Virus record (IMG/VR): IMGVR_UViG_3300033562_002112
Span: 1-37,430 of that record
Strand: one strand, 5' to 3'
DNA: 37,430 bases
Source: a virus
Lineage: Duplodnaviria; Caudoviricetes
Position 1 is the stretch's first letter. Each line of letters opens with the position of its first letter. The position numbers and the translations under genes were made by a program. The notes beneath the pieces were generated by a model that saw nothing but the letters and a program-made list of their open reading frames with translations, did not search any database and was not told the DNA's origin. Below are positions 1 to 35,537 of the stretch, piece after piece.

Positions 1-412
1 GCATGCAATAATAAGAGGCTTTCCCATAACGTCCATATAACCTGTCATTATGTACATAACCGCTAACCAAAACAGATGCATTATGCGTATGAGATGTTGG
101 TGAGTAGTAACTCCCATGTTGTCCATCCAGCAAATCAGCGTTCAAATTCGTCACCAAATTACTGTTACTCATTGTTCCACCAACAAGCGGAAGATAAGCA
201 TGTGTATGTCCAAGTCCAGAATATCGAGTATCTAAATAAGTATTTAAATTTGCAACTGTTGATATTTTGATATTATTATCAGTTGGATCAAGAATAATGA
301 ATTTATCAGAAATCAATAAATTCGGATGGACTGGAGATAAAGATAAATCGATGTCCACATCGAACACCGACTTATCTTTTATTTGCCGACCGGTAACTTG
401 AGTTTCAGCCAT
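1..412 (-). CDS. Tail fibre protein, N-terminal part (3' end truncated by window edge; not in ORF track)
   Basis: Manual translation from ATG at 412 is open to the edge: MAETQVTGRQIKDKSVFDVDIDL...NTYLDTRYSGLGHTHAYLPLVGGTMSNSNLVTNLNADLLDGQHGSYYSPTSHTHNAS. The HTH, YLPLxGGT and LNADLLDG motifs are typical of phage fibre shafts. Confidence 0.8.
   Translation of the reverse strand, partial: MAETQVTGRQIKDKSVFDVDIDLSLSPVHPNLLISDKFIILDPTDNNIKISTVANLNTYLDTRYSGLGHTHAYLPLVGGTMSNSNLVTNLNADLLDGQHGSYYSPTSHTHNASVLVSGYVHNDRLYGRYGKASYYCM
339..379 (-). promoter_or_regulatory. Intragenic RNA hairpin, 18 bp (3 G-U), 5-nt loop
   Basis: Minus strand AAAGATAAGTCGGTGTTC-GATGT-GGACATCGATTTATCTTT pairs fully only with G-U wobbles, i.e. 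on the mRNA strand. Begins 33 nt into the 412 CDS. Confidence 0.75.
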
Positions 413-456
413 AAAAATTTATTTATTTTTCGATATTATTCTTTAAATTTTATATA

Positions 457-1803
457 TTAAACAGAATAATTTACTAAAATTACATCAGTATAAGCAGAAG
501 CTGCTGATGGAGCTGAAGCAAAAGTAATTGTTGTAACATATGGTCCACTACCAACATTATAAGCAATAGTATAATCATTACCAACTCCAGCATTCATTAA
601 AATTCCATTTTTATAAACTTCTTCTGAACCAGTAATTATATGAGCATTTGCAGCAGGAGATATTGTAAAAACTGTATTTGATCCATTTACTAATCCACCA
701 GGAGTTGCTCTAAAAAATCTTGTTGAAGTATTTTCAGTAGTTAATCCTAAAATTGTTCTTATTTGTGCAGAAGTTAAATCTTCGACAACCCCTGTTCCGG
801 CAGTTATTCTTCCTTTTATTGTGTTATTAGCAACATTAGAAAGTTTAACATTTGCAAGTGTACTATCAGCCACTTTAGCACCGGTTACGTTTAAATTAGC
901 GATTTTGTCTGTAACTACTTTTGAAGTTCCGATATTTGCTGCCCCATTTAAAACAATAGTTACATCACCAGTAGCATTTGGTTGAACATATAGTGTATCA
1001 AAATATGTTTTCAAAAAAGCTTTTAAATTCGTAAAAGTGAATTTTTTGATAGACCAAGCACCAGCAGAATCAACCAAACTCAATTCATCCGCGTCAACAG
1101 GCGTTGCCTTAACAGTCGCCGCATGTGTATATGTTGCCCAGTTATATGTTGCATTAAATGCAAGCATAAGTTGAGATTTCAAAACAGCCCATGTAATTTT
1201 CTTTAAACCTCCAGAAGCCGCCGAATCAGATATTGGTAATGTATCAGCATCAACAGGAACAGCTTTTGCCGTAGCCGCATTTAACACAGCTCCAACATTT
1301 TGTGCATCTGTTACATCAGCCAAAGCTTCAATACCTGTTAATTTTGTTAATTCAGCTGTTGTTAAATGTTGATGGTCATTTAAAGCACCTCCTAATAAAC
1401 CAGAAAGTAATTCGTGACTACTCATGATTGATGTTAATTGTAACCATCTTCCAGGAGCCGCATCAGTTGCAACATCAGTTGGACGAATAATTGTACCATC
1501 ATTACTTACCACAACACTTTCAGCATCAAAACGATATAAACCAAGTGTTTCGATATGCATCAACATTTTATCAGCACGGCCAGCAACTAAAACAGCTTTG
1601 GCCGTTGCTAAATCAGCAACAGGAACGTGTATTGAATTACCAACACCTGACACAGCATTGCCAATTGCCACATCCATTTGATCTTTATTGACCGCATCTG
1701 TAGCAAGAGTTGCTGGTGATAAATTAATTATTTTTTTGGAATTTGCATCCAAATTATCATCAATGTAAATTTGTGATGATGACCTTTGTTTTGTGATTGC
1801 CAT
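457..1803 (-). CDS. Tail fibre / whisker-like virion protein (448 aa)
   Basis: Ala/Gly/Thr/Val-rich. Has an IINLSP..ATDAVNKDQ fibre motif, an internal 52-aa-period repeat, VVTDKIA/VTGAKVA-type repeats and a C-terminal GxxNGxNxxF beta domain. Lies in a fibre/baseplate cluster. Confidence 0.7.
   Translation of the reverse strand: MAITKQRSSSQIYIDDNLDANSKKIINLSPATLATDAVNKDQMDVAIGNAVSGVGNSIHVPVADLATAKAVLVAGRADKMLMHIETLGLYRFDAESVVVSNDGTIIRPTDVATDAAPGRWLQLTSIMSSHELLSGLLGGALNDHQHLTTAELTKLTGIEALADVTDAQNVGAVLNAATAKAVPVDADTLPISDSAASGGLKKITWAVLKSQLMLAFNATYNWATYTHAATVKATPVDADELSLVDSAGAWSIKKFTFTNLKAFLKTYFDTLYVQPNATGDVTIVLNGAANIGTSKVVTDKIANLNVTGAKVADSTLANVKLSNVANNTIKGRITAGTGVVEDLTSAQIRTILGLTTENTSTRFFRATPGGLVNGSNTVFTISPAANAHIITGSEEVYKNGILMNAGVGNDYTIAYNVGSGPYVTTITFASAPSAASAYTDVILVNYSV
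1021..1278 (-). repeat. Two-copy internal protein repeat (156-nt period)
   Basis: AATAKAVPVDADTLPISDSAASGGLKKITWAVLK (1177-1278) versus AATVKATPVDADELSLVDSAGAWSIKKFTFTNLK (1021-1122). Confidence 0.85.
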
Positions 1804-1808
1804 AATAT

Positions 1809-2420: not shown

Positions 2421-3893
2421 TTACGAGAAAAATAAATGTATGAAAAGTTGTTGTTGAACAGTTGCTAAACCCTCTATTCTTAAAGTATTTGAATTTTGTG
2501 CAATAACACCTGAATGAGAAGCATTTCCATAAAGTAATCTTTCACCAAATGATGTCATTGTAAATATTGTAACTTGTGCAATTTTTCTATTCAAATTATG
2601 TATAATCAAAAGATCATTTTGATTTCCATTATATGCCATTACTGTCCAGCCAACAGGATAATCAACTCCGGCAATTGCACCTGAACATCTATTAGCCACA
2701 GAAGTTGCTGATGGTAGATTTATATCATAAATTGACTTATAATCATTATGTGTATGATCACCATATGCAGCTTTTGAATGGTCTATTCCAAATCCAGGAA
2801 AAGAAACAGTACCAAAAGGAGCAAAAGCTTTAACATCAATTCCTAATTCTCCCGTAACTGGATTATAAACAATGGGAGCAATTGGAAGTATTAATGCCGT
2901 ACCGGAAGCTTGTTGAGATAATGTTCTTATTGTTTTGTTATTTATTTCAAGTAAATCCTTATTAATAGGGACAACTTCAGTTTGTGAATTATTAAATAAT
3001 ACCACAGTTTCAGAAATAAATCCTATCATTGAATTATTTAATGAATCAAAACGATTTATTCCTAAATAAATTTCATGTGTTTGCGCAATTGATATTTTTC
3101 TATTTATACGAGCTTCAATTTTAATACGTTTAAATCCATCGTCAAATATCATATTAGAAAAACGTAATTCAATTTGATTATTGTAATCTATTGAACAATG
3201 TTCTACGGAGAAGAAAATAATTACCGAATTGTTAATATCATTAATAACATTTATGTTACTTGAAAGAATATCATTCGTTATTGTATTTTTTAATACAAGT
3301 TTGAAATTATTTGATTTCCCATCTGATTCATTTTGAGATAAATCTGTTTTAAAAACAGTAATTGTCGTCCAAATATTTTCATTATTTTCTCCAACAATAT
3401 CCAATTCCAAAATATGTTTTGATTTAATCAAAAAATTGATATTATCCAATTTTGATTTATCAAAAGGAGACATTAATCCAGGTTTTGAATTTTTGTTATA
3501 ATATTCATATATTGAATTAAAACCTAATTTGAAATTTTCAGCACTACTAACAAAAAAACTAGCAAAATCTTGAAAAGTAATTGCCTGATTATCTTCTGAA
3601 ACATGAAAAGTATCATAAATATCCAATATTTGATCAATGTCAAATTCCCATAAAAATCCATTAGTATCGTTAGATAAATAATGTTTTTTTAGTCCGTTGG
3701 TTGTGTCATCAATTAAATATCCGTATATACCTTGATAAATAGTACCATCAAAATCAAATACTATTTTTTGTCCAATATAATAACGAAAACTTATTGGTTC
3801 TAAAATATCGAAAAAAAGTTTATCGTTAACTATTTCAGTTACTTTTATTTCGAATTTATTTAATTTAGGATATTCTATTGGATTTAAAATCAT
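2421..3893 (-). CDS. Putative tail fibre-associated structural protein (490 aa)
   Basis: GLMSPFDKSKLDNI and AAYGDHTH fibre-type motifs, and a C-terminal IxHNLN module. Sits between baseplate wedge and fibre genes. Confidence 0.55.
   Translation of the reverse strand: MILNPIEYPKLNKFEIKVTEIVNDKLFFDILEPISFRYYIGQKIVFDFDGTIYQGIYGYLIDDTTNGLKKHYLSNDTNGFLWEFDIDQILDIYDTFHVSEDNQAITFQDFASFFVSSAENFKLGFNSIYEYYNKNSKPGLMSPFDKSKLDNINFLIKSKHILELDIVGENNENIWTTITVFKTDLSQNESDGKSNNFKLVLKNTITNDILSSNINVINDINNSVIIFFSVEHCSIDYNNQIELRFSNMIFDDGFKRIKIEARINRKISIAQTHEIYLGINRFDSLNNSMIGFISETVVLFNNSQTEVVPINKDLLEINNKTIRTLSQQASGTALILPIAPIVYNPVTGELGIDVKAFAPFGTVSFPGFGIDHSKAAYGDHTHNDYKSIYDINLPSATSVANRCSGAIAGVDYPVGWTVMAYNGNQNDLLIIHNLNRKIAQVTIFTMTSFGERLLYGNASHSGVIAQNSNTLRIEGLATVQQQLFIHLFFS
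3808..3853 (-). promoter_or_regulatory. Intragenic hairpin (12 bp with bulge plus 4-bp inner stem)
   Basis: Minus strand TCGAAA-T-AAAAGT pairs with ACTTTT-TTTCGA; inner AACT/AGTT. Starts 40 nt into the 3893 CDS. AU-rich. Confidence 0.4.
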
Positions 3894-3914: not shown

Positions 3915-5429
3915 TTATTTGGAAACCATATTAATATCAAAAAACAAATTGATTGTATTAAAAGTTGAATCACATATAGCAAAATCTCCTTTTAAAATTG
4001 GTAAATATTCAATATGTTTAATTATATATGGCGTTGATGTTTCGATTTTTTTCTCAATTTTTTCTTTTTCAACAATTTGATTAAAAATAGTATATTCAAA
4101 TTTGATATTATTTTTAACCATATATGTTTCGAAAATATTTTCAACATTAACAATATGATTTTTAATATACAAAAACTTCGAAAATTCAGTATATAATATT
4201 TCCTGAATGTTAAGTTTATGTTTTGTTAATTCTTCATTTGAATCCATTAAAATTTGAAAAGCAAATTTACATGTTTTAAGATCATATATAATATGTGATG
4301 TTAAAGCATATTCAAATTCCTCAATAATTTTCGATAAATTTGTTTTTTCCGAACTTTTTAATTGATAAGTTTGAAAATCAATTATTTTTTTGTATTGATT
4401 AATATAATCATTTGGATTATTTGATTTAATATTTAATGATTGTTTTTTACCCAAATATAAATGATTTATTGTTTTTTCAATTGAATCATTTTTAATATCT
4501 TGAATCAAAATTGTTGAATATTTGCCAATAAAATTCCTATAACTTATATTGTCAAATAATAATATTTTTCCATGATTATATCCAATTGCGGCCCGCAAAG
4601 CATTTTCATCTGTTCCATTTGAACCAAAATCAAATCCTGTTAAATTTATTATTTGAATTTCATTATCAGATGGATTTATATTATTGCCAATATTGTCAAT
4701 AATGTTTTGTGTTTCAAAATCATGTGTTTCTTCAATATTACCAATTTCTCCAGATGTAAGTTTGTAAGTAATATTAATAATATCTTGTATTTTTAATCCT
4801 TTCAAATAAATAATGATAGGTTTTTGAATATCATTTGAAAATTTTACAAGAAATTGTTGATTATTATTTTCTCCTTCCATATCAAAAAAGGATTTTACTT
4901 CCAAAAATTGAATTCCATTTACTTCAATACTTATTGAATTTTGCGCGATATTTTCTTCTGGAAGATATATTCTTTCAATTAAGTTATTTGTTTGTATTGT
5001 TGTTTTTATGTTTTTTATTTCCCCTTCAACAACTGGAATAATATTCAAACCATTAACTAAACGAAAAGTTTTATTTGAATTATAATAATAATTCAATTTC
5101 GATAATTTATCTGTAAATATAGAATATGGTGGTAAAAATAATGGATACCCAGTTCTTGAAAATAATTTCGGATTAATAACTAATTCAAGTAATCCAGAAG
5201 CAGGTATTTTCAAAGTTGGTTCAAAACCATTTTCAGCAGACATATGTCTTAAAGAAGAAAGATGTTGAGCTGTCAACATATTTCTTTCTCGTTTAACAAT
5301 ATCAAGACGATATTCTAAATGTGTAAACATCGCATTAATACCATTAAACATTTGCCAAAATATGTTTGTTACATGTTTTGGTATACGTTCAGAAATATAT
5401 CTTTTTAAAATTGCGTCTATTCTTTCCAT
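3915..5429 (-). CDS. Baseplate wedge subunit (T4 gp6 / baseplate J-like)
   Basis: LTAQHLSSLRHMSAENGFEPTLKIPASG matches the gp6-family TAxxxxSxxxxAxxxGYxP pattern; GSNGTDENALRAAI matches GGxDxESxxxxR. Follows a gp25-like gene. Confidence 0.8.
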   Translation of the reverse strand: MERIDAILKRYISERIPKHVTNIFWQMFNGINAMFTHLEYRLDIVKRERNMLTAQHLSSLRHMSAENGFEPTLKIPASGLLELVINPKLFSRTGYPLFLPPYSIFTDKLSKLNYYYNSNKTFRLVNGLNIIPVVEGEIKNIKTTIQTNNLIERIYLPEENIAQNSISIEVNGIQFLEVKSFFDMEGENNNQQFLVKFSNDIQKPIIIYLKGLKIQDIINITYKLTSGEIGNIEETHDFETQNIIDNIGNNINPSDNEIQIINLTGFDFGSNGTDENALRAAIGYNHGKILLFDNISYRNFIGKYSTILIQDIKNDSIEKTINHLYLGKKQSLNIKSNNPNDYINQYKKIIDFQTYQLKSSEKTNLSKIIEEFEYALTSHIIYDLKTCKFAFQILMDSNEELTKHKLNIQEILYTEFSKFLYIKNHIVNVENIFETYMVKNNIKFEYTIFNQIVEKEKIEKKIETSTPYIIKHIEYLPILKGDFAICDSTFNTINLFFDINMVSK

Positions 5430-5441
5430 TATTTATTTATT

Positions 5442-5831
5442 TTAAGAACCAAGTAAAAATTTCTGTTTATATGTTTGATTAATACCGTCTTGATCTTGGG
5501 CATTAATACTAAAAACAATATATATTAAATCCTTATTATCTGAATTTTTTATTGTTTCTACTGATATTGTATATGAAAATTCAGAAGCATGTTGACAATT
5601 TTTAGAAACATAAGAAGTTATTTCGTTTCTAATTTGTGTTATTGTAACATATTGATTAAAAAGATATCTACCCAAATTTATCGAATCAGAAATACCCCAA
5701 ATCTCATTAGGACCAATTTCCATCACTAATTCAATTTCTTGTATAAATAATTCTAAAGGTTGTGTTAATATATTATCCTGTATGGTATTACCATGCAAAT
5801 AAATATCAACATAATTTATTTTATTTGACAT
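5442..5831 (-). CDS. Baseplate wedge / sheath initiator, gp25-like (129 aa)
   Basis: Size, the IQEIELVMEIGPNEIWG...LGRYLF...IRNEITSYV...LIYIVFSI pattern, and position directly upstream of the gp6-like gene. Confidence 0.65.
   Translation of the reverse strand: MSNKINYVDIYLHGNTIQDNILTQPLELFIQEIELVMEIGPNEIWGISDSINLGRYLFNQYVTITQIRNEITSYVSKNCQHASEFSYTISVETIKNSDNKDLIYIVFSINAQDQDGINQTYKQKFLLGS
5763..5811 (-). promoter_or_regulatory. Intragenic long imperfect hairpin (about 21 bp)
   Basis: Minus strand TGTTGATATTTATTTGCATGGT-AAT-ACCATACAGGATAATATATTAACA folds with G-U pairs, two bulges and one mismatch. Starts 20 nt into the 5831 CDS. Confidence 0.6.
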
Positions 5832-5833: not shown

Positions 5834-6772
5834 TTAAATTATTGAAGTTTGTTCTTCCCGCATTTTTATTTCAAGAAATGAATTTAATTTACTTAATGTT
5901 TCTGAAAATGTATTCCAATGAGTATGATCATTTATTGTATTTATTGCTATCTGAGTTGCTTGATTATTACAAGTTTTCATGTTAAAAATAAATTGATACC
6001 CAATTGTTCTGGATAAATTTGTTTTTTGTGTAAAAACTTCTTGATCCCAATATGTAACTTTATTTTCAAATGGGTAAATAAAATTTATTCCATGTAATTT
6101 TTGTATTCCTGTTTCATCAGTATAAAATAATAATAATGTATTGAAATTAAAATCTTGTTCCAAAACATCATTAAAAACACAATTTTCAAAATCGATAACA
6201 TCTTTTAATCCAGTAAAATCAAATTGTTTATCTCCATTATCAAATAAACATACATCTTCATCAATACTCTGAATTATATTATCAATATTACCTATTGTTT
6301 TCCATGCAGGAATTAATAATTTACATTTATTTGGAATTTGACAAACAAGTTCTCCCCAACCATTATTATTTTCAGTTGTAATAAAATTAGAAGTAACTAT
6401 TTCATTTATGAAAGTTACGGTTGATTTATAATTAACCCCCATTTTACTGAGCATTTTCCAAAATGCAATTTCAGTAATTTCTTCTATTGGATTTCCATTT
6501 ATACCAATTGATGGTTGACGCAAAATATTTTCTAAATAATATTGAATAGTTTTTGGAACCACAATATTTGGATTCGTACTATTTTCACCAACAGAAGTTA
6601 AATCAATAAAAAATTCAGGATTTTGCCAAAAGGGTAAATTTAATGCTACCATTTTAGTAAAATAACAAATCTTATTTGTTGAAATTGCTTTATCAAAATC
6701 AAATAAAGCTTTTGAAAAACTGATATATGTACTTTGATCATTTCTTAATTGATCTAATTCTGGTAGATTCAT
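5834..6772 (-). CDS. Hypothetical protein, probably baseplate-associated (312 aa)
   Basis: First gene of the leftward unit, 2 nt from the gp25-like gene, genome-typical codon usage. No motif I can assign with confidence. Confidence 0.6.
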   Translation of the reverse strand: MNLPELDQLRNDQSTYISFSKALFDFDKAISTNKICYFTKMVALNLPFWQNPEFFIDLTSVGENSTNPNIVVPKTIQYYLENILRQPSIGINGNPIEEITEIAFWKMLSKMGVNYKSTVTFINEIVTSNFITTENNNGWGELVCQIPNKCKLLIPAWKTIGNIDNIIQSIDEDVCLFDNGDKQFDFTGLKDVIDFENCVFNDVLEQDFNFNTLLLFYTDETGIQKLHGINFIYPFENKVTYWDQEVFTQKTNLSRTIGYQFIFNMKTCNNQATQIAINTINDHTHWNTFSETLSKLNSFLEIKMREEQTSII

Positions 6773-11435: not shown

Positions 11436-12126
11436 AACATTAATAATTGGTCTTGATCTTTCATTTAATTCAACAGGTATTGTAATATCTGAAATTGAAG
11501 GAACAAACGGAAAATTTATTGAGTTTCATAAAGTAATTTTTGATCACAATTCTAATAAAACTGATAAAAAATATACTCCTCAATCAATAAAAAATATTAA
11601 TATCCACACATATCGTATGCCAACAAATATTTTGGTAAGTGATTTAGTATTGGATATTAATGACACAAATAATTTGGAGCAATGTGAAGCTACTTTGAAA
11701 GCAATGATTTGTTCTAAAAAAATAGGGATAATAATTGCACAAAAAATATTGGAATCAAATCCAACAGAAGTTATTGTTTCAATTGAAAATTATATAATGC
11801 CTGCATTTTCAGGCCAAAATCAATTGAAAACAGTTTCTGGTTTAATAATGTTACAAGGATATGTAAGACAAGTAATTATTCGATTATGTTTGGATAAAAA
11901 TATTTCCTTTAAATTATATACTCCTACACCATCATCGAATAAATTATTTTTTTCAAGAAATGGACATGCTGAAAAACCAGAAATGTTAAAAGCATTTTTA
12001 AATTATTATGATGGAAATAAATTACTTCCATCAGTAACAATTGATTCATCCGCATCTGTTAATGACGTAATTGATGCTTTTTCTCTTATGATGAACGCTT
12101 ATAATAAACACATAGTAAAAAAATAA
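11428..12126 (+). CDS. ruvC: RuvC-like Holliday junction resolvase
   Basis: IIGLDLSFNSTG (first Asp), SIENY (Glu), YTPTPSSNKLFFSRNGHAEKPEM and NDVIDAF (two Asp) reproduce the RuvC catalytic motifs. Confidence 0.88.
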   Translation: MNKTLIIGLDLSFNSTGIVISEIEGTNGKFIEFHKVIFDHNSNKTDKKYTPQSIKNINIHTYRMPTNILVSDLVLDINDTNNLEQCEATLKAMICSKKIGIIIAQKILESNPTEVIVSIENYIMPAFSGQNQLKTVSGLIMLQGYVRQVIIRLCLDKNISFKLYTPTPSSNKLFFSRNGHAEKPEMLKAFLNYYDGNKLLPSVTIDSSASVNDVIDAFSLMMNAYNKHIVKK

Positions 12127-12128
12127 TC

Positions 12129-12542: not shown

Positions 12543-12589
12543 TTTAAAAACCATTATATAATATATAAAACTTATTAAATACAAACAAA

Positions 12590-24998: not shown

Positions 24999-26738
24999 AT
25001 GATAAGTCTTGATGATAAAAAAGCGAGGGTTTTTGAAAATACAGTAATTTATTTTCAAAAACCTATCGAAAATTTGGATATACAAAAATTGGAAGTAATT
25101 ATTTCTGGAAATGAAAATAATTATTTTCAACTTTTGTATAATTATTCATACGATAAGATTAATTATTCCGAATTTGTTTTGAAACCTAATTTTTTAAATC
25201 CAGATAACTTATCCATACCATGTTATATTTCGATTTTATTGAAAAGAAATGAAATCACAGATTTACAAAAACCATTAACATTATACCAAACTAAAAACGT
25301 TAATTCTTCTTCAAGTATAATACTTGAATCTATTTCGTATAATGATGAGTTATTAAATATTTTTGATGAATCTGAATGTAAATCATCTACAACATATGAA
25401 ATAATTAATCAATTTCCGAAATGGAATTTTTATGATAATCAAAACATAACAATAAATAGATGGTTACAACAATGTAATTCTATTGCTGAAATGTATGGGC
25501 ATACTTGTATTTATTTCAAAACTGAACCAATAGAAAGTGAAACAATTCATACTTTTAAAAATCATGTTTTTCGTAATGTCGTAAATGTCAAAAAATTGCA
25601 CATAATTCCTCCTGGAAATGAATTTCCTCAAGACAGAGTAGTATTTTCGGAATGGGACCAGGCATTACAAGATGATTTTATAATACATATTGTTGTCGAT
25701 AAATTTGAACAAGCTTTTGGAGAAAATAAAATTCCAATAGAAAAAGATTATCTTTTTATTCCATTATTAAATAAATTATTTCGTGTTGCGACATCGCAAC
25801 CAAAAAATAGTTTTATGGGTAAAATTGGTTGGTGGGAAGTTTTTTTATCAAAATTTGAAGAAGACGAAACAGTTTTAATAGATCCGGCATTAAAAACATC
25901 AATGGAATTAAATGGTTTATTTAATGAAGAATTAGATTCAATGGATATTTTTGATAATTCCTTAAGTTCAGAAATATTTAATGAATTAACAACATTTGAA
26001 AATGATACTGTTGAAACCAAAGAAAAAAATGATTTTTTAACTGTTGAAGAAAAAAAACAAGTTAATCAGAATTATACGAACAAATTAACAGATTCAATAC
26101 ATTATGTTTCTTTAAAAGAAACAGAAAAATTAAGAGAATTTTATGATAATCGTTTAAAATTAGTTTCTGTTAATCCAGACAGTAATTCATTTCCAATAAC
26201 AATGTATGATAATTCAGCTGTTCCAAAAAGAGTAATGGCAATGCAATATGTTTTAGGTGATTATTCAACCAAAAATAAATTTTCATTAAATGTTATTGAG
26301 GGATTTCAATTATCATTTAATTATGTTTTGTTAACTAAATTTGTTGGTGAACTTTTCGATATAATATCAAATAATGTTGTTTTATTTACACTTTCAATTT
26401 CTCGAAATAAAATAGAAATAATTGATAATAGAAATGGATTAGTAAATAATTTTTTAGTTGATTTTGGATTAAATATTAATGAAATTTATAATATCGTTTT
26501 GGAATATAATTTGTCAATAAATCAATTGGCAATTAAAATTTTCTCGTTAAAAAACAAAGAAAAAAACTTAGAATATCAAAACATATATATAAATGAACAA
26601 GTTATAATACCCTTTTTGATAACACACATACAAATGTTTGGTGGAAATTATTATTCTAATGAAATAATTTTTAAAATTAACAAAAATGTTATTCTCAAAG
26701 ATTATACAAATCCATTACTTTTGATGAAAAATATTTAA
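24999..26738 (+). CDS. Neck / head-closure protein (T4 gp14-like core) with N- and C-terminal extensions
   Basis: SIAEMYGHTCIYFK and KFEQAFGENKIPIEKDYLFIPLLNKLFRV match the gp14 motifs (IxxYGxxxxY; PxEGDLIYFPLxxKLFEI). Confidence 0.75.
   Translation: MISLDDKKARVFENTVIYFQKPIENLDIQKLEVIISGNENNYFQLLYNYSYDKINYSEFVLKPNFLNPDNLSIPCYISILLKRNEITDLQKPLTLYQTKNVNSSSSIILESISYNDELLNIFDESECKSSTTYEIINQFPKWNFYDNQNITINRWLQQCNSIAEMYGHTCIYFKTEPIESETIHTFKNHVFRNVVNVKKLHIIPPGNEFPQDRVVFSEWDQALQDDFIIHIVVDKFEQAFGENKIPIEKDYLFIPLLNKLFRVATSQPKNSFMGKIGWWEVFLSKFEEDETVLIDPALKTSMELNGLFNEELDSMDIFDNSLSSEIFNELTTFENDTVETKEKNDFLTVEEKKQVNQNYTNKLTDSIHYVSLKETEKLREFYDNRLKLVSVNPDSNSFPITMYDNSAVPKRVMAMQYVLGDYSTKNKFSLNVIEGFQLSFNYVLLTKFVGELFDIISNNVVLFTLSISRNKIEIIDNRNGLVNNFLVDFGLNINEIYNIVLEYNLSINQLAIKIFSLKNKEKNLEYQNIYINEQVIIPFLITHIQMFGGNYYSNEIIFKINKNVILKDYTNPLLLMKNI
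25024..25068 (+). promoter_or_regulatory. Intragenic hairpin, 15 bp + 3 bp, 8-nt loop
   Basis: CGA-GGGTTTTTGAAAATA-CAGTAATT-TATTTTCAAAAACCT-A-TCG; starts 25 nt into the 24999 CDS. Confidence 0.7.
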
Positions 26739-27548: not shown

Positions 27549-29906
27549 ATGGATACTAAATTAAGACAAATTGTCAGTAAAGCTGCTGGTACCTATTTTA
27601 TAGTTACCGATAATTCGCAAGTCGCAAATATCGAAGCTGAATCAAAAATGAGATTATTTTTTATTAACATGGAAAAAGGTCCTGTGAATATGCTTTTCAA
27701 ATTTGCGAAAGGTGACAGTTTGGGATTTTTATCTGTTTTTGGTAAAACTACTCGTTTACAAGAAAAAAAGGGAAATTTTTCAATTTCAACATGTCTTGAT
27801 GCTTTAAGTGCCGGTCCAATTGCCGTCATTAATCTTCGAGCATTTAATGAAAATGATAAGTCCGGATTAGTTGGTATGAATCCTAACATACTTGATTCAA
27901 ATGCTGTTGAATTTGAATATTCGAATTTATTTAATACAAATAATTTTTGGGCTCCTCAACCAAAAAATATGGTTGCTCCCCTTGAAATTGAAGGAGCTAA
28001 TTTATTGAATTTTGGTAATATTGGAAATAATAATTTATCAATTTTCGTTACATTTGCTAAATCATCTGATGTTCTTGCAATTACAAGTGAAGGACAAAAT
28101 ACACTTGCAAATTGTTCATTAACTATTGATGAATATCCTGCAATTGATCCGAATATGTTATTGGAAAATACATTTGTAAATGTATATGTTTTCAATAATA
28201 CGTTTAATCCTGTTACTGTAGGTACAAATCAATTTTATGGCCATTTATTTAATGCACAAGGAAATCTTGATTTTACCCGTATTGAAGAATTGATTGATAT
28301 TTCTGAAGCTGGTTTTGCAACTAAATTTACTGGTTCATTAATTCCAGGATTAGTTTCTGAAAATGATATTGATATTTCGATTGATAAAGTAATCAATCAA
28401 CAATATATGAATATCGGTCTTCTCGCATATATTAATGACGAATTGTTTGAAGCTTCTAATAAATTTTTACTCGATGTTTTTGCAGATGAGTTTTATGATG
28501 AAACCGGTGATGCTGTAAATACCAATTTATTATCTCATATTACTCCTGTTGCTTTAACAACTGTAGATGTTGTTTATCCATTAGTAACAAAAGAAGCAAA
28601 CGTAGCTCCTCTCGCAGCAAATGTTATAAATTATGGTTGTGTAAAAGTTGATACAAATAAATTCGAAGGTTCATTTGAACAAGGATTACGTGTTGGTGAT
28701 ATTTTAAAGGGAACTGAAGGAAAAGTTAAAATTGTAAGTATTGATATTATTGACGCACTTGCTATTATTGGTGACTCAACTTATACAAAAGTACAATTTA
28801 TTTGTTCAGGATCAGTTAAATTTGAAGATACTATTGTACCTGCTGTTATTGGTACTGGAACTGTAGAAAATCCTCAATTCCCCGCAAAAACAACTTCAGA
28901 AGTAACCAAATTTAATCTTTTCACAAAAACTGGTTTAATTAAACCATTTGCTTTAAATGCTTATGTTCCAAGATCAACACAATTTACTGATGGAACAAGT
29001 GAAAAACAAAATGAAATTCTGAATATGATGATTTCTCCTGGTATTGTAAAAGGAATAAAATCAGCAACCGGAATACGTTATGTAGTTGATTGTTTCAAAT
29101 CATTTGTTGAACCAAGTTATAAATCACAATTTGGATCATTAATGGTTTCACTTGATCAATCAAATAAATTTGTTCGTGCAATTATAAACGAACCATTTAT
29201 TGAGGATTTACAAAAATCTTCAAACCCTATGTTCAAACAAACCCCAACAGGTATTTTTGACTGGAGTTATGTACCAGAAGGTGGAAATAAAACCTATTCA
29301 AGCAAACTTTTAACAAAGTTTAGTTTAGGAGCAGAAATGTGTTTCTTTTTTGGACCAGGAAATATTGTTGGTTCTATTACAAAACCTTTGACCGGTTTAA
29401 TTTCAAATTTATTTTATAATAAAAGGTATGCTTTTGATGTTGTTGCAAATGCAACAGGATATGTTGATGGAATAGCTGAACTTGAATCAGCAATTGATGA
29501 TGATGAAAGAGCATATTGTGAAAGGTTTGGTTATAATCCAATAATTTATTTCGGTGGTGGAAATACTATTTATGGTAATTTAACCGGACAAAAAGCAAAA
29601 ACCGCTCAACAACAAATTCATAATTCGGAATTGCTCGCATATATAAAGGAATCTTTGTATAACCTCGCGAAAGGCGAATCTTTCAAAAAAGGTAATTATG
29701 ATGATTATCTTCGTACCGAAACCGAAACCACGAATTTTATGAATGGATTAGCTCTTGTTGGTGCAGTAAATGCAAACCCTGTCGTTATTTGTAATGCTTC
29801 AAATAATACACCGGAAATTGCGAAACAAAAAATAAAACTCATTCATATTGAATACACCCCAGTTGATTCTCTTGAGAAAGTTGTATTTGATTTACAAATT
29901 AATTAA
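27549..29906 (+). CDS. Tail sheath protein (gp18-like)
   Basis: AGTYFIVTDNS, KGPVN and FLSVFG at the N-terminus; DDERAYCERFGYNPI, IYGNLTGQ, QQIHNSELL, VICNASNNTPEI and IEYTPVDSLEKV at the C-terminus. Confidence 0.93.
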   Translation: MDTKLRQIVSKAAGTYFIVTDNSQVANIEAESKMRLFFINMEKGPVNMLFKFAKGDSLGFLSVFGKTTRLQEKKGNFSISTCLDALSAGPIAVINLRAFNENDKSGLVGMNPNILDSNAVEFEYSNLFNTNNFWAPQPKNMVAPLEIEGANLLNFGNIGNNNLSIFVTFAKSSDVLAITSEGQNTLANCSLTIDEYPAIDPNMLLENTFVNVYVFNNTFNPVTVGTNQFYGHLFNAQGNLDFTRIEELIDISEAGFATKFTGSLIPGLVSENDIDISIDKVINQQYMNIGLLAYINDELFEASNKFLLDVFADEFYDETGDAVNTNLLSHITPVALTTVDVVYPLVTKEANVAPLAANVINYGCVKVDTNKFEGSFEQGLRVGDILKGTEGKVKIVSIDIIDALAIIGDSTYTKVQFICSGSVKFEDTIVPAVIGTGTVENPQFPAKTTSEVTKFNLFTKTGLIKPFALNAYVPRSTQFTDGTSEKQNEILNMMISPGIVKGIKSATGIRYVVDCFKSFVEPSYKSQFGSLMVSLDQSNKFVRAIINEPFIEDLQKSSNPMFKQTPTGIFDWSYVPEGGNKTYSSKLLTKFSLGAEMCFFFGPGNIVGSITKPLTGLISNLFYNKRYAFDVVANATGYVDGIAELESAIDDDERAYCERFGYNPIIYFGGGNTIYGNLTGQKAKTAQQQIHNSELLAYIKESLYNLAKGESFKKGNYDDYLRTETETTNFMNGLALVGAVNANPVVICNASNNTPEIAKQKIKLIHIEYTPVDSLEKVVFDLQIN

Positions 29907-29909: not shown

Positions 29910-31094
29910 ATGAAAGAATTTTCAAAATTAAAAAACCTCGAAACCAGGAAGGACCATCTGATTAATCAGATGGTCATTTCTACTGGTTTACCGGTTGAGA
30001 GAATTGAAAAACTTTATGAAAGTTTTTCATATGAAAATGATGGGGATTTTGTCAAAATTAATGAAAGTTTTTCTTCATTCATTATGCCATCAGCAACAAC
30101 ATTTGATTTCGAAAATTTTAAAAAACAAATTATTGATTTATCGCAACAAATTATTAATCCTCAAATTTCTCTTGAAGAACGCGAAAAAATTACTGATTTG
30201 ATGTTTAAAACAATTCAAGATAATTGTGGTATTTCTGTTGGAACTACCCAATTACTTGAAGTCATTTGTTACATATTACTTTTGAAAAATGATAAATTTC
30301 AAAAAATTTCTGAACAAATTTCATTTGGTAAAGTAACAAAAAGTCTTTTTGAATCAGAAAAAATAGATTTTACCCCGATAAATGTTTCAAAAAAGAATAC
30401 TGCTGAACAAAATTCAATAAATGCTTCCGAAGATAAAAAACTTTACGAAAGTTTAAAAAATATTCTTGCCAAAAATAACAAACGTTGGGGGTATAATTAT
30501 CATTTGGATAATACTTATAACGAAATTGTTAAATATTTGGATTCGGAAATTCAGGAATTAACAAACATGAATAATGTTCATACGGTTGGTAATACTTTCC
30601 ACATGGAATTATTAAAACAAATTTTGACAGAAAAACAACTTAATCAAAGTTATCGTCATATTGATGTTTTACGAAATTTGATTCCAGATATTCAAACTTT
30701 AGTTTTTGATTTAATGCTTCTTATTCATTCATATACTGAAAAAAATAAAGAAGTTATTGAATTTGTTGCCCGTGATACATTTATTGATTTTACGGATATT
30801 GAAAAAACATTATTTGCAGCAATTTCAAGTTCAAAAAAATCTTCCAAAATAATCAATAACAGTTTATTTTCTTCATCTGTTGCAAATAATTTTGAAATTG
30901 ATTTTGAAAAAATTGATATTGGTAATAATCCTATTCAATTACGTTCAGCAATTGATATGATTCATATTATTAAATCATGCGAAACTGAATTTAATTTACA
31001 TTTACGTAAAGTTATAAATAAATATGTTACAAAAACATTTAATCTTCTTGCCTCTACAGAAAAAATAATTCTTAGGGAAAGAAGTATTAAATAA
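29910..31094 (+). CDS. Hypothetical protein (394 aa) between sheath and tube; possible head-packaged protein
   Basis: Long ORF with repeated (L/I)xES motifs: KLYESF, KINESF, SLFESE, KLYESL. Confidence 0.65.
   Translation: MKEFSKLKNLETRKDHLINQMVISTGLPVERIEKLYESFSYENDGDFVKINESFSSFIMPSATTFDFENFKKQIIDLSQQIINPQISLEEREKITDLMFKTIQDNCGISVGTTQLLEVICYILLLKNDKFQKISEQISFGKVTKSLFESEKIDFTPINVSKKNTAEQNSINASEDKKLYESLKNILAKNNKRWGYNYHLDNTYNEIVKYLDSEIQELTNMNNVHTVGNTFHMELLKQILTEKQLNQSYRHIDVLRNLIPDIQTLVFDLMLLIHSYTEKNKEVIEFVARDTFIDFTDIEKTLFAAISSSKKSSKIINNSLFSSSVANNFEIDFEKIDIGNNPIQLRSAIDMIHIIKSCETEFNLHLRKVINKYVTKTFNLLASTEKIILRERSIK
29941..29989 (+). promoter_or_regulatory. Intragenic hairpin with a perfect 24-bp palindromic core
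   Basis: GACCATCTGATTAATCAGATGGTC (29952-29975) extended by AAACCAG/CTGGTTT. Just downstream of the sheath stop; no U-tract. Confidence 0.8.
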
Positions 31095-31167: not shown

Positions 31168-31758
31168 ATGCCAACAAACGTAGTATTTCCACATTTAACA
31201 AATTCAACAGCCGCGGTTAATAAATATGAACCAGTAGTTGCTTCGAATTTTAATGCCCATTTTGTTTTAATGGGCAGATTAAAGTCAAAACTCGGAGATT
31301 ATTCTTTTCTTCGTGAGTATATAAAATCCGTAACTGGATTATTTGTTGAAAAAGCTGGTGGTACTATTGAAGCTGGTTACAAAACAACAAAATTCCGTTA
31401 CGATTCAAACGAGAAAGAAACATTCTATGATGTTGAAGTTCAATTTTTTAATTTCTTGGATAATGAATCAAAAATGTTTGTATACAATTCATTAGTAGCC
31501 TGGAGTCGTTTCAAACATAATCCATTAACAGGAGAAAAAACATTAAAACAAGATTATTCGGATGCCGCAATTATTGTTGAAAAATACAACAGAGACGGTA
31601 CTATTTATTGGAGAAGAATGGGACATCATTTATTTCCAATGAATGATTTTGAAGATCAAATAGCGGATTATAGTGCTCATGACATGAGTGAATTGGCAGT
31701 AACTTTTAACGTTGATTATGTTAGTGATATAACAAATGACCCACGTTTAACTGAATAA
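31168..31758 (+). CDS. Tail tube protein (gp19-like)
   Basis: 196 aa; YEPVVASNF, IEAGYKTTKFRY, VEVQFFNFLD, KYNRDGTIYWRR, LFP and LAVTFNVDY follow the tube fold pattern. Downstream of the sheath gene. Confidence 0.88.
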   Translation: MPTNVVFPHLTNSTAAVNKYEPVVASNFNAHFVLMGRLKSKLGDYSFLREYIKSVTGLFVEKAGGTIEAGYKTTKFRYDSNEKETFYDVEVQFFNFLDNESKMFVYNSLVAWSRFKHNPLTGEKTLKQDYSDAAIIVEKYNRDGTIYWRRMGHHLFPMNDFEDQIADYSAHDMSELAVTFNVDYVSDITNDPRLTE

Positions 31759-31760: not shown

Positions 31761-32081
31761 ATGCTCAAAAAACGAAATAATGAGGAAATTGGTATTTTAA
31801 CACCAGTTTCCTCATCATTAAATAATGGGAAAGAATTAACATTTTCAACCCCTAAAATAAGATCATACAAGGATGAAGCTATTTTAGTTTTAAATATCTT
31901 GGAAGCAAATAATATTGATATTTATAATCCAAGAAATAAACCCGGAATGTATCTGAATAGGAAAAACAAGAATAATATTTCATCAAAATTAAAGGAAAAA
32001 TTTCAAGAAAATAATGACGATGAAAATAATTCAAGTGAATTAACAAATTTATTTCAACACTTAAAAACAATCAAAAAATAA
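31761..32081 (+). CDS. Hypothetical protein (106 aa)
   Basis: Fills the gap between tube and chaperone genes with 2-4 nt spacers. Confidence 0.65.
   Translation: MLKKRNNEEIGILTPVSSSLNNGKELTFSTPKIRSYKDEAILVLNILEANNIDIYNPRNKPGMYLNRKNKNNISSKLKEKFQENNDDENNSSELTNLFQHLKTIKK
31776..31819 (+). promoter_or_regulatory. Intragenic hairpin, 14 bp (1 G-U) + 3 bp
   Basis: ATGAGGAAATTGGT-ATTTTAAC-ACCAGTTTCCTCAT (31780-31815); 19 nt into the 31761 CDS, directly after the tube stop; no U-tract. Confidence 0.75.
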
Positions 32082-32085: not shown

Positions 32086-33021
32086 ATGAAAAATGATAAT
32101 TTGGATGCTCTTTCACAATTAGAAAAAGAAACACAAAAAAATACGGATGATTCTGTCTTAGAACGTAATGATTTAAGACCAAATATGCTTGATGGCTATA
32201 AAATTCTTCAAAGAGAAGAATTGCCACAAAAAGGTGTTTTATATCCTGAATCATGGCAATTTGCTTATAGATGTCCAATAGCTAAGGAAGTAGCTAATTT
32301 TTCAACCCTTAATGAAAATGATCAACCAGCAATTATTGCGGCTGTTGAAGATTTGATACGTAAATGTGTTGTTATTTATGATGTTGAAAAAGATCGACAA
32401 GTTTCTTCGGGACAAGTAAATGATGCACATCGTACTTTTTTCTTATTATTACTTAGAGAATTTTATCTTCCTGGTAGTCCAATCACATATCCTTCTGTTT
32501 GTACTTTATGTAAAGAACCATTATCAATACATTTAACTTCAGATAAATTAAAATATTCCGAATTATCAGAAAAAATACTTAAAGATTTTGATGGTCGCAA
32601 TTTTTCATTATCAATGCCGGATATCGAAGAACCAATTAGGTTTTATATTCCCACAATAGAAATAACTTCAAGAATTTTCAAATATATCGTAAAAGTTTAC
32701 AGAGATGATCAAAACGATAGGGAAACAAAAGAAGATAAAATTGTTTATGACAAACAATTTTTGTTAATTGCCCCTTATTTATATGTGAAAGGAAATGAAA
32801 CTGTAAAAGAAATTATTCAAAAATTTAAAGGAATACAAAAAGACGAAAAATTATTTAAAGCATATTTGAATATTGCGGTAAAATTAAAAACAGACAATCT
32901 TGATTATATAGAGGAAATCTGTGGAAGTTGTGGGTCGACGGAGGAGGCTCTTTTACGATTTCCAGGAGGATGGAAAGGTATGTTTATCAACAAGACAGAC
33001 AATACTGGATATTTCAACTGA
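32086..33021 (+). CDS. Baseplate hub / tail assembly chaperone (T4 gp26-like) with two CxxC motifs
   Basis: ELPQKGVLYP, DAHRTFFLLLLRE, CTLC and CGSC. Located between tube and tape-measure genes; ends at TGA. Confidence 0.8.
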   Translation: MKNDNLDALSQLEKETQKNTDDSVLERNDLRPNMLDGYKILQREELPQKGVLYPESWQFAYRCPIAKEVANFSTLNENDQPAIIAAVEDLIRKCVVIYDVEKDRQVSSGQVNDAHRTFFLLLLREFYLPGSPITYPSVCTLCKEPLSIHLTSDKLKYSELSEKILKDFDGRNFSLSMPDIEEPIRFYIPTIEITSRIFKYIVKVYRDDQNDRETKEDKIVYDKQFLLIAPYLYVKGNETVKEIIQKFKGIQKDEKLFKAYLNIAVKLKTDNLDYIEEICGSCGSTEEALLRFPGGWKGMFINKTDNTGYFN

Positions 33022-33364
33022 TAAATTGAGAATTTGGAAGGAAAGAAATTTCCTTCCAAATTCTCAATTAATTTCATTAATTTATTCGCAGTCAAAGATT
33101 AATTTGTCAGATTATTATGAAACTTGCGCGATTATGTCGTCTGAATCATCAAATAATCAACAAATAATTGATAATCTTGAATATTATGTTTTCAATAATT
33201 TAATGGTTTATTATCAAAAAATAGCTGAAAATAAATCAGGTACAAACGGAAATGAACAACAAAATACTCAAAATCAAGCAGCTAATCAATTTTCTAATGC
33301 ACAAAAAAGTGCGAAACAATTAATGAAACCAAATCTTGGAAGCAGAAATTTTAAAAAGAAATAG
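32921..33364 (+). CDS. gp51-like / chaperone extension ORF overlapping the gp26-like gene in the +1 frame; true start uncertain
   Basis: INLSDYYETCAIM...IIDNLEYYVFNNLMVYYQKIAE resembles the small YYxxxxxL...IENM...Y ORF that follows gp26 homologues. Candidate starts are GTG 32921, TTG 33026 or ATG 33134, or entry by frameshift. Confidence 0.65.
   Translation: MEVVGRRRRLFYDFQEDGKVCLSTRQTILDISTDKLRIWKERNFLPNSQLISLIYSQSKINLSDYYETCAIMSSESSNNQQIIDNLEYYVFNNLMVYYQKIAENKSGTNGNEQQNTQNQAANQFSNAQKSAKQLMKPNLGSRNFKKK
33024..33069 (+). promoter_or_regulatory. Perfect 21-bp hairpin with GAAA tetraloop
   Basis: AATTGAGAATTTGGAAGGAAA-GAAA-TTTCCTTCCAAATTCTCAATT, 2 nt after the TGA at 33019-33021. Confidence 0.9.
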
Positions 33365-33365
33365 G

Positions 33366-35207
33366 ATGAACATTATGAGAAATTTAAACGAAGGAATTGA
33401 AGATTTATTGAATGGAACTATTGTAAGTAATATTCCTGATATTGATACGGTTTTGTCAACAACAAAAAAGAAAAAAAGAACTTCTATTTTTGGTGATGAT
33501 GAAGAAGTAATTCCAAAAATTTCTGTAATTGAACAATCACCTATTGTAATTCCGCAACCTATTGCTGAAGAATTTCAAGAAAATGTTGTTTCACAAATTT
33601 CTCAAATCGATCGGGTTCAAGAAATAAAAAGAATATCTGCTTTGCGTTCGAAAAAGAAAAATAAAACTGAACAAATAAGTCAGGTTTCTGCTGAATCTTT
33701 GGAAAAAAGGATGCAAGAAGTCAGAAAAGAAATTGAAGCTTTACGAGGAGAAGATTTACCAGAAAATATAAATATTATCGAAATTGAAGAAGAAGTATCA
33801 ACAGCTTTGGAAGATATTCCAGGAGCAGAACATATTGATATTGGTGATTTAGATATACGTGCAATTCCTACAAAAAAAGATAAAACAGGATATTTTAAAA
33901 GTGAAATTACCAGTAGGAAAGAAAATTATCCTGATATTCTATTGAAAATTGCTTCTTATGTAAAAAAACGTTCAAAAGGATTATTAATTCCAAGAAAAGT
34001 TGATTTACGTGTTTTAGCAAATACAAACAAAACACAATTAAGAGGTTCAGCTTTGAAATTAGGATTAACATCTATTGTTTTTAAACCCGATCCAAACAAA
34101 CTTAAAGTAAATAAAGGCACACGTTTCATGATTTCTGTTCCTGAAGATTATATGTCTTCAAAAAACATAATTGTCTATATTCAAGAATCAAGAAATAAAA
34201 AAATTATTCAACTGTCTCCTAATGATACACAAAAAACTCAAGATAATTTTAATGCGTTTATTGGGGACAGAGTAGTTGAGTATTATTTTTCAGGTTTTGA
34301 CATAACAGTTAAAAAACTTGAATTACGTTCAGTAAATAATCCATTAATGGACGTAACAACCAATATTATAGCAACACACGAATTTAAAGCAATTCCACAT
34401 GTTGACGAAAATTCCCATGTATATTCTGTTGATTTTTATTCAAAAGGAGTAGATAATCAATGGTTATATATTCAAGTTGTTGAAACAGAAATACCTGGAA
34501 AATATGAATTAATAGCAAAAAATAAAGTTGATCAAACTTGGAATTTTGCTTTAACTCAAAAACCTGTAACCCTTAATGCTTTAAATTCAAATCTTTATAA
34601 TATTCTTTCTTCTTGTTTTGGAAGAGTTTGGGATAAAGAATTAAATATTGAAGATAATATGCGTTTTTATTATTTGTATGATAAATTATCTCATGCAAAA
34701 TTGAAAAACGTAATGGTATATATGTTTGAAATGATGGAATCTGAAGAAAATTCAGAAGAAGATTTGGATTTTCAAGACAAGAAAATAAAAATTAATCCAA
34801 TAATAAAAGAAACATTATCCAAAAAAGATACAGCTAAAGCTTTAAAAATAGATTATGATTCCGAAGCTATTATCTTTAAAACAGATTTTATTGATTATTG
34901 TATTTGTTCATTTTTAGCATATCCAATTGTTGGAGGGGACAAAAGAAAAGGTTCAGATTATATAACAACTGAACAATATTATGAAAAATATAACGTAAAA
35001 GATACTCGAAATTATCAAGAAAGACAAAAAACAATTTCAAAAAAAGAAGGAACTGAAAGAAATTATAATTCAAGAATATATTTATATCAACTTGAATATT
35101 CTGTCAAAGGTAAAGTACATATATATAGAAACACAAAGTGGGAAGATGTTTTAAAAGAAACAGGAATTTTTACAACTTTAGTTAAATTTCCAGAAACAAA
35201 ATTTTAA
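33366..35207 (+). CDS. Hypothetical protein (about 613 aa); start re-assigned to ATG 33366
   Basis: The in-frame ATG lies 1 nt after the upstream TAG, fitting local gene packing better than TTG 33336. Charged low-complexity N-terminal third, globular remainder. Confidence 0.7.
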   Translation: MNIMRNLNEGIEDLLNGTIVSNIPDIDTVLSTTKKKKRTSIFGDDEEVIPKISVIEQSPIVIPQPIAEEFQENVVSQISQIDRVQEIKRISALRSKKKNKTEQISQVSAESLEKRMQEVRKEIEALRGEDLPENINIIEIEEEVSTALEDIPGAEHIDIGDLDIRAIPTKKDKTGYFKSEITSRKENYPDILLKIASYVKKRSKGLLIPRKVDLRVLANTNKTQLRGSALKLGLTSIVFKPDPNKLKVNKGTRFMISVPEDYMSSKNIIVYIQESRNKKIIQLSPNDTQKTQDNFNAFIGDRVVEYYFSGFDITVKKLELRSVNNPLMDVTTNIIATHEFKAIPHVDENSHVYSVDFYSKGVDNQWLYIQVVETEIPGKYELIAKNKVDQTWNFALTQKPVTLNALNSNLYNILSSCFGRVWDKELNIEDNMRFYYLYDKLSHAKLKNVMVYMFEMMESEENSEEDLDFQDKKIKINPIIKETLSKKDTAKALKIDYDSEAIIFKTDFIDYCICSFLAYPIVGGDKRKGSDYITTEQYYEKYNVKDTRNYQERQKTISKKEGTERNYNSRIYLYQLEYSVKGKVHIYRNTKWEDVLKETGIFTTLVKFPETKF

Positions 35208-35219
35208 AAAATAAAACTC

Positions 35220-35537
35220 ATGATAATTGAAAAAGTAGGGAATGACGGACGAACACAATTAATGATAGCTTTAAACAAACTTACATCAAGTTTGGTAAAG
35301 CGTAATGTATCGTTCGTTATTAACACACATTCGGAATTTGTTGGTACAATTAATTTGATTGTTACTGGAAAATTAGGTTCAGCACAAAAAACTATTGTAA
35401 TTATATATAATCATACTTCAGGGGAATGGGAAGGATATTCTGATGGATATTTATTCCGAATGTTATTATTGAATGAACTTTCAACTGTATTGAAAAGTAA
35501 AATCAATAAATTATCTGTTTTATTACATAAAGTTTAA
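35220..35537 (+). CDS. Hypothetical protein (105 aa)
   Basis: Tightly packed ORF directly before the tape-measure-like gene. Confidence 0.7.
   Translation: MIIEKVGNDGRTQLMIALNKLTSSLVKRNVSFVINTHSEFVGTINLIVTGKLGSAQKTIVIIYNHTSGEWEGYSDGYLFRMLLLNELSTVLKSKINKLSVLLHKV
35241..35321 (+). promoter_or_regulatory. Intragenic long compound hairpin
   Basis: Outer stem AATGACGGACGA/TCGTTCGTTATT (12 bp, 2 G-U); inner GCTTTA/TAAAGC and CAAACTT/AAGTTTG around an ACATC loop. Starts 21 nt into the 35220 CDS. Confidence 0.7.

Follow-up and report, generated by a model that had tools for sequence, protein, structure and literature searches.

The 37,430-base contig IMGVR_UViG_3300033562_002112, which was analysed in full and is called the window below, has ~25% G+C and carries the tail module of a large myophage. 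In this module, the genes that follow the tail sheath and tail tube genes each carry a strong hairpin shortly behind their start codon. The strong stems are real and not a product of chance, and comparison of the junctions in relatives showed that, in the sequences compared, the stem belongs to the upstream sheath or tube gene and not to the start codon behind which it lies. On each feature that sequence can test, the stems behave as a protective 3' hairpin would. Our preferred reading, to which we give a probability of roughly one half (0.52), is that the strong hairpins are 3'-end barriers lacking a uridine run (U-less), which would protect the abundant upstream messages of sheath and tube and step the next gene down.

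Hairpins behind the sheath, tube and fibre-like genes

The sheath gene (27549-29906; the hairpins listed one by one and the genes that own or host them are on the plus strand unless the minus strand is named) matches PHROG 34521 tail sheath with an E-value (E) of 2e-115, and its product matches the sheath proteins of Sphingomonas phage PAU and Tenacibaculum phages pT24 and PTm1 and, weakly, those of Prevotella Lak phages. It is the upstream owner of the best-supported hairpin, 29941-29989, which starts at +31 from the A of the ATG inside the conserved gene 29910-31094, for which PHROG, Pfam and Atlas gave no name. The stem is built of an upper helix, an internal loop and a lower helix, and its z-score is −6.4 against dinucleotide shuffles.

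Relatives were gathered via the tube protein, yielding 44 loci, including duplicates, on contigs of viral and metagenome origin, with PAU and pT24 taken from their records; the 29910 protein found zero relatives among viral contigs. The sheath junction was readable in 28 distinct loci. When the gap between the sheath gene and the next gene was 51 nt or less, a stem with a folding energy of −19.7 or stronger lay inside the next gene in 18/21 loci, and when it was 70 nt or more, a stem lay in the spacer in 7/7 loci and inside the gene in only one of these (L052, which has both). The association of gap length with stem site gave a Fisher p of 0.001, not corrected for kinship, and on the sheath tree (27 rows; L071, with 55 residues, was left out) the gap state of the stem requires 3-4 changes.

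The pairing itself is also conserved. Across the 18 rows of the in-gene sheath stem, double-sided changes occurred at eight of the ten pairs, in 27 cells against 9.9 in shuffled alignments, counts which kinship inflates according to the tool's own warning and which rest on the structure folded by the row of the window itself; cell number and score both exceeded all 500 shuffles, and slid controls were lower. All ten pairs were kept in 13 of the 18 rows despite residue changes (e.g. Q/E/K/D opposite a changing Leu/Ile codon), and the stem stood in a shifted register in 5 of the 18. Because of these shifted registers, RNAalifold returned a weak consensus for the in-gene alignment (−1.2 kcal/mol). 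The initial annotation of this DNA had named conservation and covariation in related phages as a check on its stems, and compensatory changes that alter the host protein were indeed present in the sheath stem. Alignment of the relatives thus showed that the sheath-stem pairing is maintained through changes altering the protein in which it lies.

The tube gene (31168-31758) was recognized from a structure model (mean predicted local distance difference test, pLDDT, 49) that matches the T4 tail tube 5w5f with an E of 2e-5; its protein profile found no match among PDB sequences. It is the upstream owner of the hairpin 31780-31815 (z −6.6), which starts at +19 inside 31761-32081, a small gene whose N-terminal tail is variable among homologues. 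Homologues of 31761 lying directly after the tube gene carried a stem of −16.9 or stronger in 13/16 cases, and those located elsewhere in 0/10. After a long or convergent gap behind the tube gene, a simple stem of −12 or stronger started in the gap in 8/12 loci. One such junction (L011, gap 63 nt) has an inserted gene of 318 aa whose ATG is overlaid by the stem, which departs here from the exclusion zone described below. We assign the stem to the upstream gene because it accompanies sheath and tube, shifts to long spacers and is absent from non-adjacent tube neighbours.

The hairpin 25024-25068 (z −6.0) starts at +25 inside 24999-26738 and follows a gene for a tail/fibre-like protein (22131-24995; PHROG 8763 tail protein, E 3e-18). 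Among 21 rows, it recurs at the same site in L001, L002, L004, L051, L057, L069, L081 and L083, is weak or different in several others, and at the fibre junction of L005, where the gap is 144 nt, lies inside the gap. Thus far the stems are conserved in orthologues, at the sheath, tube and fibre junctions; elsewhere conservation is patchy or missing. The long hairpin 35241-35321 (z −5.4; +21 inside 35220-35537), behind a gene (33375-35207) whose product could not be named, has strong counterparts in L059, L079, L053/L075 and L057 and weak ones in most others of 20 rows. On the minus strand, the moderate hairpin 5763-5811 (+20 inside 5442-5831, after 5834-6772; z −2.8 against shuffles and −3.5 against the codon-resampled null) has strong counterparts in L027 (−31.8) and L039 (−20.9) and no clear one in three other homologues. 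Also on the minus strand, 339-379 (z −5.1; +33 inside 2-412), with three G-U pairs and a U-rich 3' arm, follows the tail-fibre-like gene 457-1803 (minus strand; PHROG 2710 and 19294, E about 1e-6), and its single homologue bears a different structure of −20.1 at +23. The short hairpin 9032-9057 (+26; z −3.6), after a gp5-like spike gene, has no equivalent among four homologues and is an uncertain member of the set, and the minus-strand stem 3808-3853 (−8 kcal/mol; z −1.3), with no equivalent in two homologues, is probably not a member.

The initial annotation had listed eight of these stems as strong and as starting closely behind a start codon. All eight fold at the positions it gave, each with an in-frame ATG whose A lies 19-40 nt ahead of the stem. 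Two are moderate and five very strong (z −5.1 to −6.6), and its claim of strength did not hold for 3808-3853. Its four weaker stems (z −2.2 to −3.4, in windows cut round the stem) found no support as members of the set. One of them, 35573-35621 at the start of a tape-measure-like gene (z −2.3), lies about where L062, L067, L074 and L006 have a strong stem (−22 to −27). The strongest hairpin of the window, considered below with the hub gene, was not on its list, and only three of the six strongest (span up to 60) were. Rfam gave no match at the gathering threshold in the whole window. Among the contigs obtained from four public DNA runs, the one spanning contig, possibly the source of this DNA, showed three differences, none of them within stems.

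Further strong structures lie ~73-81 nt into three genes, namely the tube gene (31241-31297, −18.9), 24999 (25080-25139, −19.6, a second stem behind 25024) and 3915-5429 (5291-5349, −21.5); a structure like that of the tube gene is also present in L004 and L005. At the 18414 start, after a 1061-aa gene, the in-gene stem is weak in the window and strong in 4/7 homologues (L005, L022, L036 and L047).

Enrichment at gene starts was examined against synonymous-codon resampling with the protein kept, in a 30-gene set from which 32921-33364 was left out and the minus-strand open reading frames (ORFs) 35828-37060 and 37111-37401 were removed, since they shadow ORF 35541-37430 of the plus strand. A z below −3 occurred at 7/30 gene starts and 6/177 internal sites (Fisher p = 6e-4), so that the excess over a codon-shuffled null that the initial annotation had looked to was found; a separate start test also gave 7/30, its set differing in part. 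The annotation further held that the sheath, tube and gp26-like genes are free of stems at their own starts, and none was found there at +15 to +45 (z −0.7, −0.5 and −0.3), with the qualification that the tube gene has the −18.9 structure at +73. Its description of the system as operon-wide failed, the majority of genes being without such a stem. Chance folding in AT-rich coding DNA is an adequate explanation of 3808-3853, 11469-11498, 14814-14859 and perhaps 9032-9057, which are weak or unconserved. It cannot account for the enrichment, covariation and register shifts of the stems behind sheath, tube and fibre genes; for the conserved stems we regard it as extremely improbable.

Position of the stems in related genomes

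Six relatives (G001-G004, G006 and G007, five of them AT-rich) were scanned for strong start stems, defined as more than 8 kcal/mol beyond resampled codons. Such stems were found at 38/356 short-gap genes, 4/115 long-gap genes and 0/33 operon-first genes (p = 0.002), and a control stretch of the short-gap genes had 11/356; the offset was 15-60 in 36 of the 38 strong short-gap stems. In the five AT-rich relatives, 21 of the 26 short-gap stems of −19 or stronger start at +15 to +59 (about 3.3 expected) and none at −15 to +14; of the 42 stems at long gaps, 41 have ended by position −16. These counts showed that, in the genomes compared, the stretch from −15 to +14 around the ATG is almost free of strong-stem starts. 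In PAU, of which 135 of 219 kb was covered, an in-gene stem occurs at +24 to +29 at 4/107 short junctions, and one more starts at +8. The PAU record (NC_019521.1) has an intergenic stem behind the sheath gene gp90 and one inside gp100 at +28 (about 75529-75560).

As the initial annotation had claimed, the start context lacks Shine-Dalgarno (SD) sequences: an SD-like 4-mer precedes only 1/28 ATG starts of the window, and an A stands at −3 in 22/28. SD-less starts are described for Bacteroidetes (PMC3155529), and from this context we infer a Bacteroidetes host. In Prevotella, a hairpin at −21 leaves translation intact and a weaker structure nearer the start inhibits it (PMC3155529), with which the stem-free zone around the ATG in the relatives agrees. 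The best reading of the +19 to +42 offset is that the stems keep clear of the zone where ribosomes land.

Proposed protective 3' ends and competing functions

In the mechanism that we prefer, the sheath, tube and hub genes would be transcribed from their own late promoters, for which a motif was seen in one relative only. Read-through RNA would be cut, or released by Rho, within the weakly translated downstream gene, and 3'-to-5' trimming of the exposed RNA would halt at the stem, so that a stable upstream mRNA remains. SD-less initiation would require an unstructured landing zone, so a gap of 2-50 nt would leave room for the barrier only just past the ribosome footprint, which we propose as the reason for the +19 to +42 offset; in the loci compared, spacers of ~70 nt or longer contain the stem themselves, and with shorter ones it sits inside the next gene. 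The numbers of sheath and tube subunits in T4 are well above a hundred. The proposal of the initial annotation that the stems follow high-copy genes and step expression down gains comparative support from the way in which the stem tracks sheath and tube; the copy numbers are assumed.

Concerning the promoters, a GTAAATA-type motif was found in 17/166 upstream regions of the GC-rich relative G003, ranking at the top of 105 permutations. It precedes the sheath, tube and hub genes and is absent before the two intervening genes, which bear stems; motif and stem occur together at one other gene. In this genome (L025-L028), GTAAATA / GTATAAATA stands 25-49 nt ahead of many structural-region genes. 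It is likely a late promoter, and its form is presumably close to that of T4. G006 encodes a late-sigma-factor-like protein (E 5e-6). In the window, a sigma-70 promoter scan remained at chance level (150 vs 146) and a late-promoter motif could not be demonstrated.

U-less protective stems within a downstream gene are already known from E. coli, in which 17/26 of the protective stems behind differential operon decay lie within the downstream coding sequence (PMC5927463). Like those 3' structures, the phage stems are U-less hairpins 3' of the supposedly more abundant gene, often inside the next coding sequence and kept in relatives; unlike them, they occur in an SD-less setting, take their place in the spacer or the gene according to the length of the gap, and are compensated by amino-acid-changing substitutions. 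The cip-cel operon of Clostridium cellulolyticum offers a parallel in purpose, since 3' stem-loops of abundant subunit mRNAs set the stoichiometry of its complex (PMC4423207), although there the processing sites are intergenic and the ends measured, whereas the phage stems lie in genes of a virion operon that probably has internal promoters. Stable U-less stems also protect Rho-terminated transcripts, whose precise 3' ends are made by exonuclease trimming; those stems need downstream rut sites (PMC6061677), whereas no C-rich signal was found behind the phage stems. RNA 3' ends of Pseudomonas phages likewise fall inside neighbouring genes, most of them in stably folded regions, while a start-codon offset, gene tracking and covariation are not among the features described in the sections consulted (PMC10914365). 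PMC13714241 and PMC7824862 added nothing on such stems. In the open-licence literature we found no phage precedent for a stem that switches from spacer to gene, for so tight an offset or for compensation at the cost of protein changes; the supplementary tables of PMC5927463 and PMC10914365 may hold equally start-near cases.

The stem could instead be a leaky transcription terminator, factor-aided or weakly intrinsic, whose read-through feeds the next gene. U-tailed terminators do follow capsid and SSB genes, which are also trailed by hairpins, mostly U-tailed and intergenic; six or more U in 9 nt follow 27/51 intergenic stems, and at L005 one stem between convergent tube and fibre-like genes resembles a two-way terminator. 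Moreover, in six Pseudomonas phages the downstream gene contains 28% of the mapped 3' ends, and only 84/268 are intrinsic (PMC10914365). The in-gene stems as a class, however, are at the background for U (2/26 against 4%), without the GC stem and direct U-run of an intrinsic terminator that about half of the intergenic stems possess. At the sheath junction a U-run abuts the gap stem only in PAU (1/7), and since most sheath stems lack a U-run in the spacer as well, the absence of U is not forced by coding. In bacteria with coupled transcription and translation, translation of the host gene is also expected to oppose termination. Taken together, a terminator function appears quite unlikely for the class. 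The claim that all stems lack a U-tract holds for the in-gene class and breaks down at 339-379, which ends in a U-rich run, scores terminator-like and is possibly a true intrinsic terminator. A simple terminator scan of the window also passes 29952-29975 and 33024-33069, the tail of the sheath stem not being U-rich in relatives. In G006 (L039-L046), several long intergenic stems have similar ends with an ATATATT-like tail in place of a U-run and may represent a promoter or a repeated element.

Processing by an RNase III-type enzyme, which would free the upstream mRNA and destroy part of the downstream message, also predicts an RNA end at the stem, as do the barrier and terminator readings. In its favour, the stems are almost pure Watson-Crick helices without a conserved loop: 56 stems with 881 pairs contain 27 G-U and 19 A-C pairs (p = 0.30) and 20 other mismatches. 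The architecture of the sheath stem, with two helices around an internal loop, is presumably like that of T7 processing sites. On the other hand, many stem cores have 10-14 pairs, which is short for RNase III, and cleavage within a conserved gene would inactivate each message that is cut; we find this function decidedly unlikely. The initial annotation had stated that G-U pairs favour the mRNA strand. This is true of 339-379, with its three G-U pairs, and fails as a general feature, since among 53 orthologous junction stems the better fold was on the sense strand in 24 and on the antisense strand in 22, and the counts of G-U and A-C pairs given above do not differ significantly either. Such symmetry is what a DNA-level inverted repeat (a cruciform, or a protein or resolvase site) placed to spare ribosome binding sites would show, and the window encodes a RuvC-like resolvase; yet the stems share no sequence, track the 3' ends of particular genes and follow gene rearrangements, which makes a DNA-level element very improbable.

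A number of observations weigh against protective 3' barriers, and several of them agree better with a translation element, in which the stem would confine or brake ribosomes re-initiating after a heavily translated upstream gene, as a 'starting block' or throttle. The offset of short-gap stems is locked to the ATG and not to the upstream stop (r = 0.01), at a position just downstream of the initiation footprint, and it is tighter and closer to the start (+15 to +60) than in E. coli, where RNA-mapped stems lie on average 107 ± 56 nt into the gene (PMC5927463). A mild mean folding excess at +30 is present in all genes and equal for short and long gaps (−1.9 and −1.8), so a start-linked component may exist. 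The contrast between short-gap and other genes weakens to p = 0.07 at the strictest cut and vanishes in a cruder window test (27/237 short-gap vs 9/104 long-gap, p = 0.57). Stems covering the ATG occur in L011, in L046 and at two gap stems of PAU, and pT24 has an in-gene stem at 0/17 short junctions. The three short-gap loci without a sheath stem form one clade (L007, L008 and L010). At the tube junction, only two independent pairs lie on supported branches, none of them opposite in direction, and three adjacent stem-less tube-neighbour homologues share one subclade with six non-adjacent ones. C-richness of the rut type after stems did not differ between 33 and 221 genes (p = 0.49; power is low in AT-rich DNA), and the GTAAATA-type motif was not enriched in G006 or a third set. 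With no strand bias, we can only infer an RNA-level role. Finally, all downstream products and part of the upstream ones are unnamed, which leaves the copy numbers assumed.

The translation element draws further on the confinement of strong stems to short-gap co-directional junctions, on the coding-sequence stem-loops that activate initiation of fepA and bamA (PMC7769764) and on re-initiation controlled by structure after stops (PMC7518266). The fepA and bamA 'starting blocks' are likewise early hairpins just past the initiation region; they belong to their own gene, whereas the phage stem goes with the upstream gene and is lost from other gene orders, as the stem-less non-adjacent tube neighbours (0/10) and operon-first genes (0/33) demonstrate. 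The ribosome termination structure of PMC7518266 is tied to the upstream stop, as are 33024-33069 and the intergenic stems only; it is centred ~5 nt past the stop and is depleted at gaps below 25 nt, the opposite of the strong phage stems, which are enriched at short gaps and displaced by 20-60 nt. Furthermore, the same sheath junction has an intergenic stem in all seven long-gap loci, the hub stem abuts a stop with no conserved start behind it, and the sheath, tube and hub starts are stem-free. We therefore consider a translation element unlikely. For the suggestion of the initial annotation that the stems position ribosomes, the contrast of 38/356 short-gap with no operon-first genes is likewise a weakening, and the +30 excess would still fit a link to the start.

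The hub stop, neighbouring genes and biological meaning

The gp26-like baseplate hub or tail chaperone-like gene (32086-33021) matches PHROG 36717 (E 9e-20) and PHROG 150 baseplate hub (E 5e-4); a single-sequence fold of its product was unusable (pLDDT 33). The hairpin 33024-33069, with 21 perfect pairs, a folding energy of −30.1 and a z of −7.4, begins 2-3 nt past its stop, within an ORF in the +1 frame. A strong stem starts 0-23 nt after the hub stop at 9 homologous junctions (the related homologue set comprises 28 distinct junctions) and is absent in several close relatives such as L001, L002 and L058; the hub tree left out L077. This stem can abut the stop because no conserved start follows that would need a stem-free zone.

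The ORF behind the gp26-like gene mostly lacks an ATG ahead of its conserved part, and in 27/27 loci the +1 frame is already open 59 nt or more ahead of the stop. A candidate +1 frameshift site, the Phe-Pro codons TTT CCN, lies at 32959-32964 and would lead into the ORF ending at 33364. The TTT-CCN pair stands ~20 codons before the hub stop in 28/28 distinct homologues, PAU included, and also in pT24, against TTT in 333/499 of the other Phe codons; a count over 24 rows showed 0 stops among the 480 +1-frame codons that follow the site and 7.9% in the part preceding it. In bacteria, +1 shifts readily occur at UUU-Ynn, and frameshifts are used by tail chaperone genes (PMC5009743). From this conservation, a programmed +1 shift at TTT CCN in the hub gene is likely. 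Through the candidate shift, the gp26-like gene and the next ORF would be joined in the manner of G/GT, at a place between the tube and tape-measure-like genes. A GGAGGAGG run is located at 32940, ~12 nt upstream of the site, and most homologues have GAG GAG codons there despite the SD-less, AT-rich context.

Several neighbouring features were also recorded. Between the baseplate and tail genes, 11428-15212 encodes the RuvC-like resolvase, a GNAT acetyltransferase and small membrane-like proteins. The TTG start listed for 33336-35207 is probably wrong, as the L001 and L002 homologues align from residue 14, which corresponds to the ATG at 33375. In L003 (6411-8746) the sheath gene consists of two ORFs of 78 and 702 codons, reflecting a sequencing error or a real break.

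The junction hairpin may also combine two jobs, ending or protecting the upstream mRNA and, when inside the next gene, controlling re-initiation of SD-less messages at the footprint edge, and with late promoters and the +1 frameshift would then form a copy-number code. We regard this combination as rather unlikely. If true, the copy numbers of a contractile tail would be encoded in RNA, by a code so strong that it determines amino acids in the host proteins.

How phages make many sheath and tube proteins and few of the neighbouring ones from a packed operon is mostly unmapped. The sheath junction offers a natural experiment on this question, in which the same junction carries its stem outside or inside the next gene by gap length, and this switch outlines a structure-free zone of −15 to +14 for SD-less initiation. 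The RNA structure constrains protein sequence here, as the alignments showed, and N-terminal amino-acid covariation in such proteins can accordingly stem from RNA pairing, which calls for caution in its interpretation. Since the cultured relative PAU carries both the spacer and the in-gene forms, the model of protective 3' hairpins can be tested directly in that phage.

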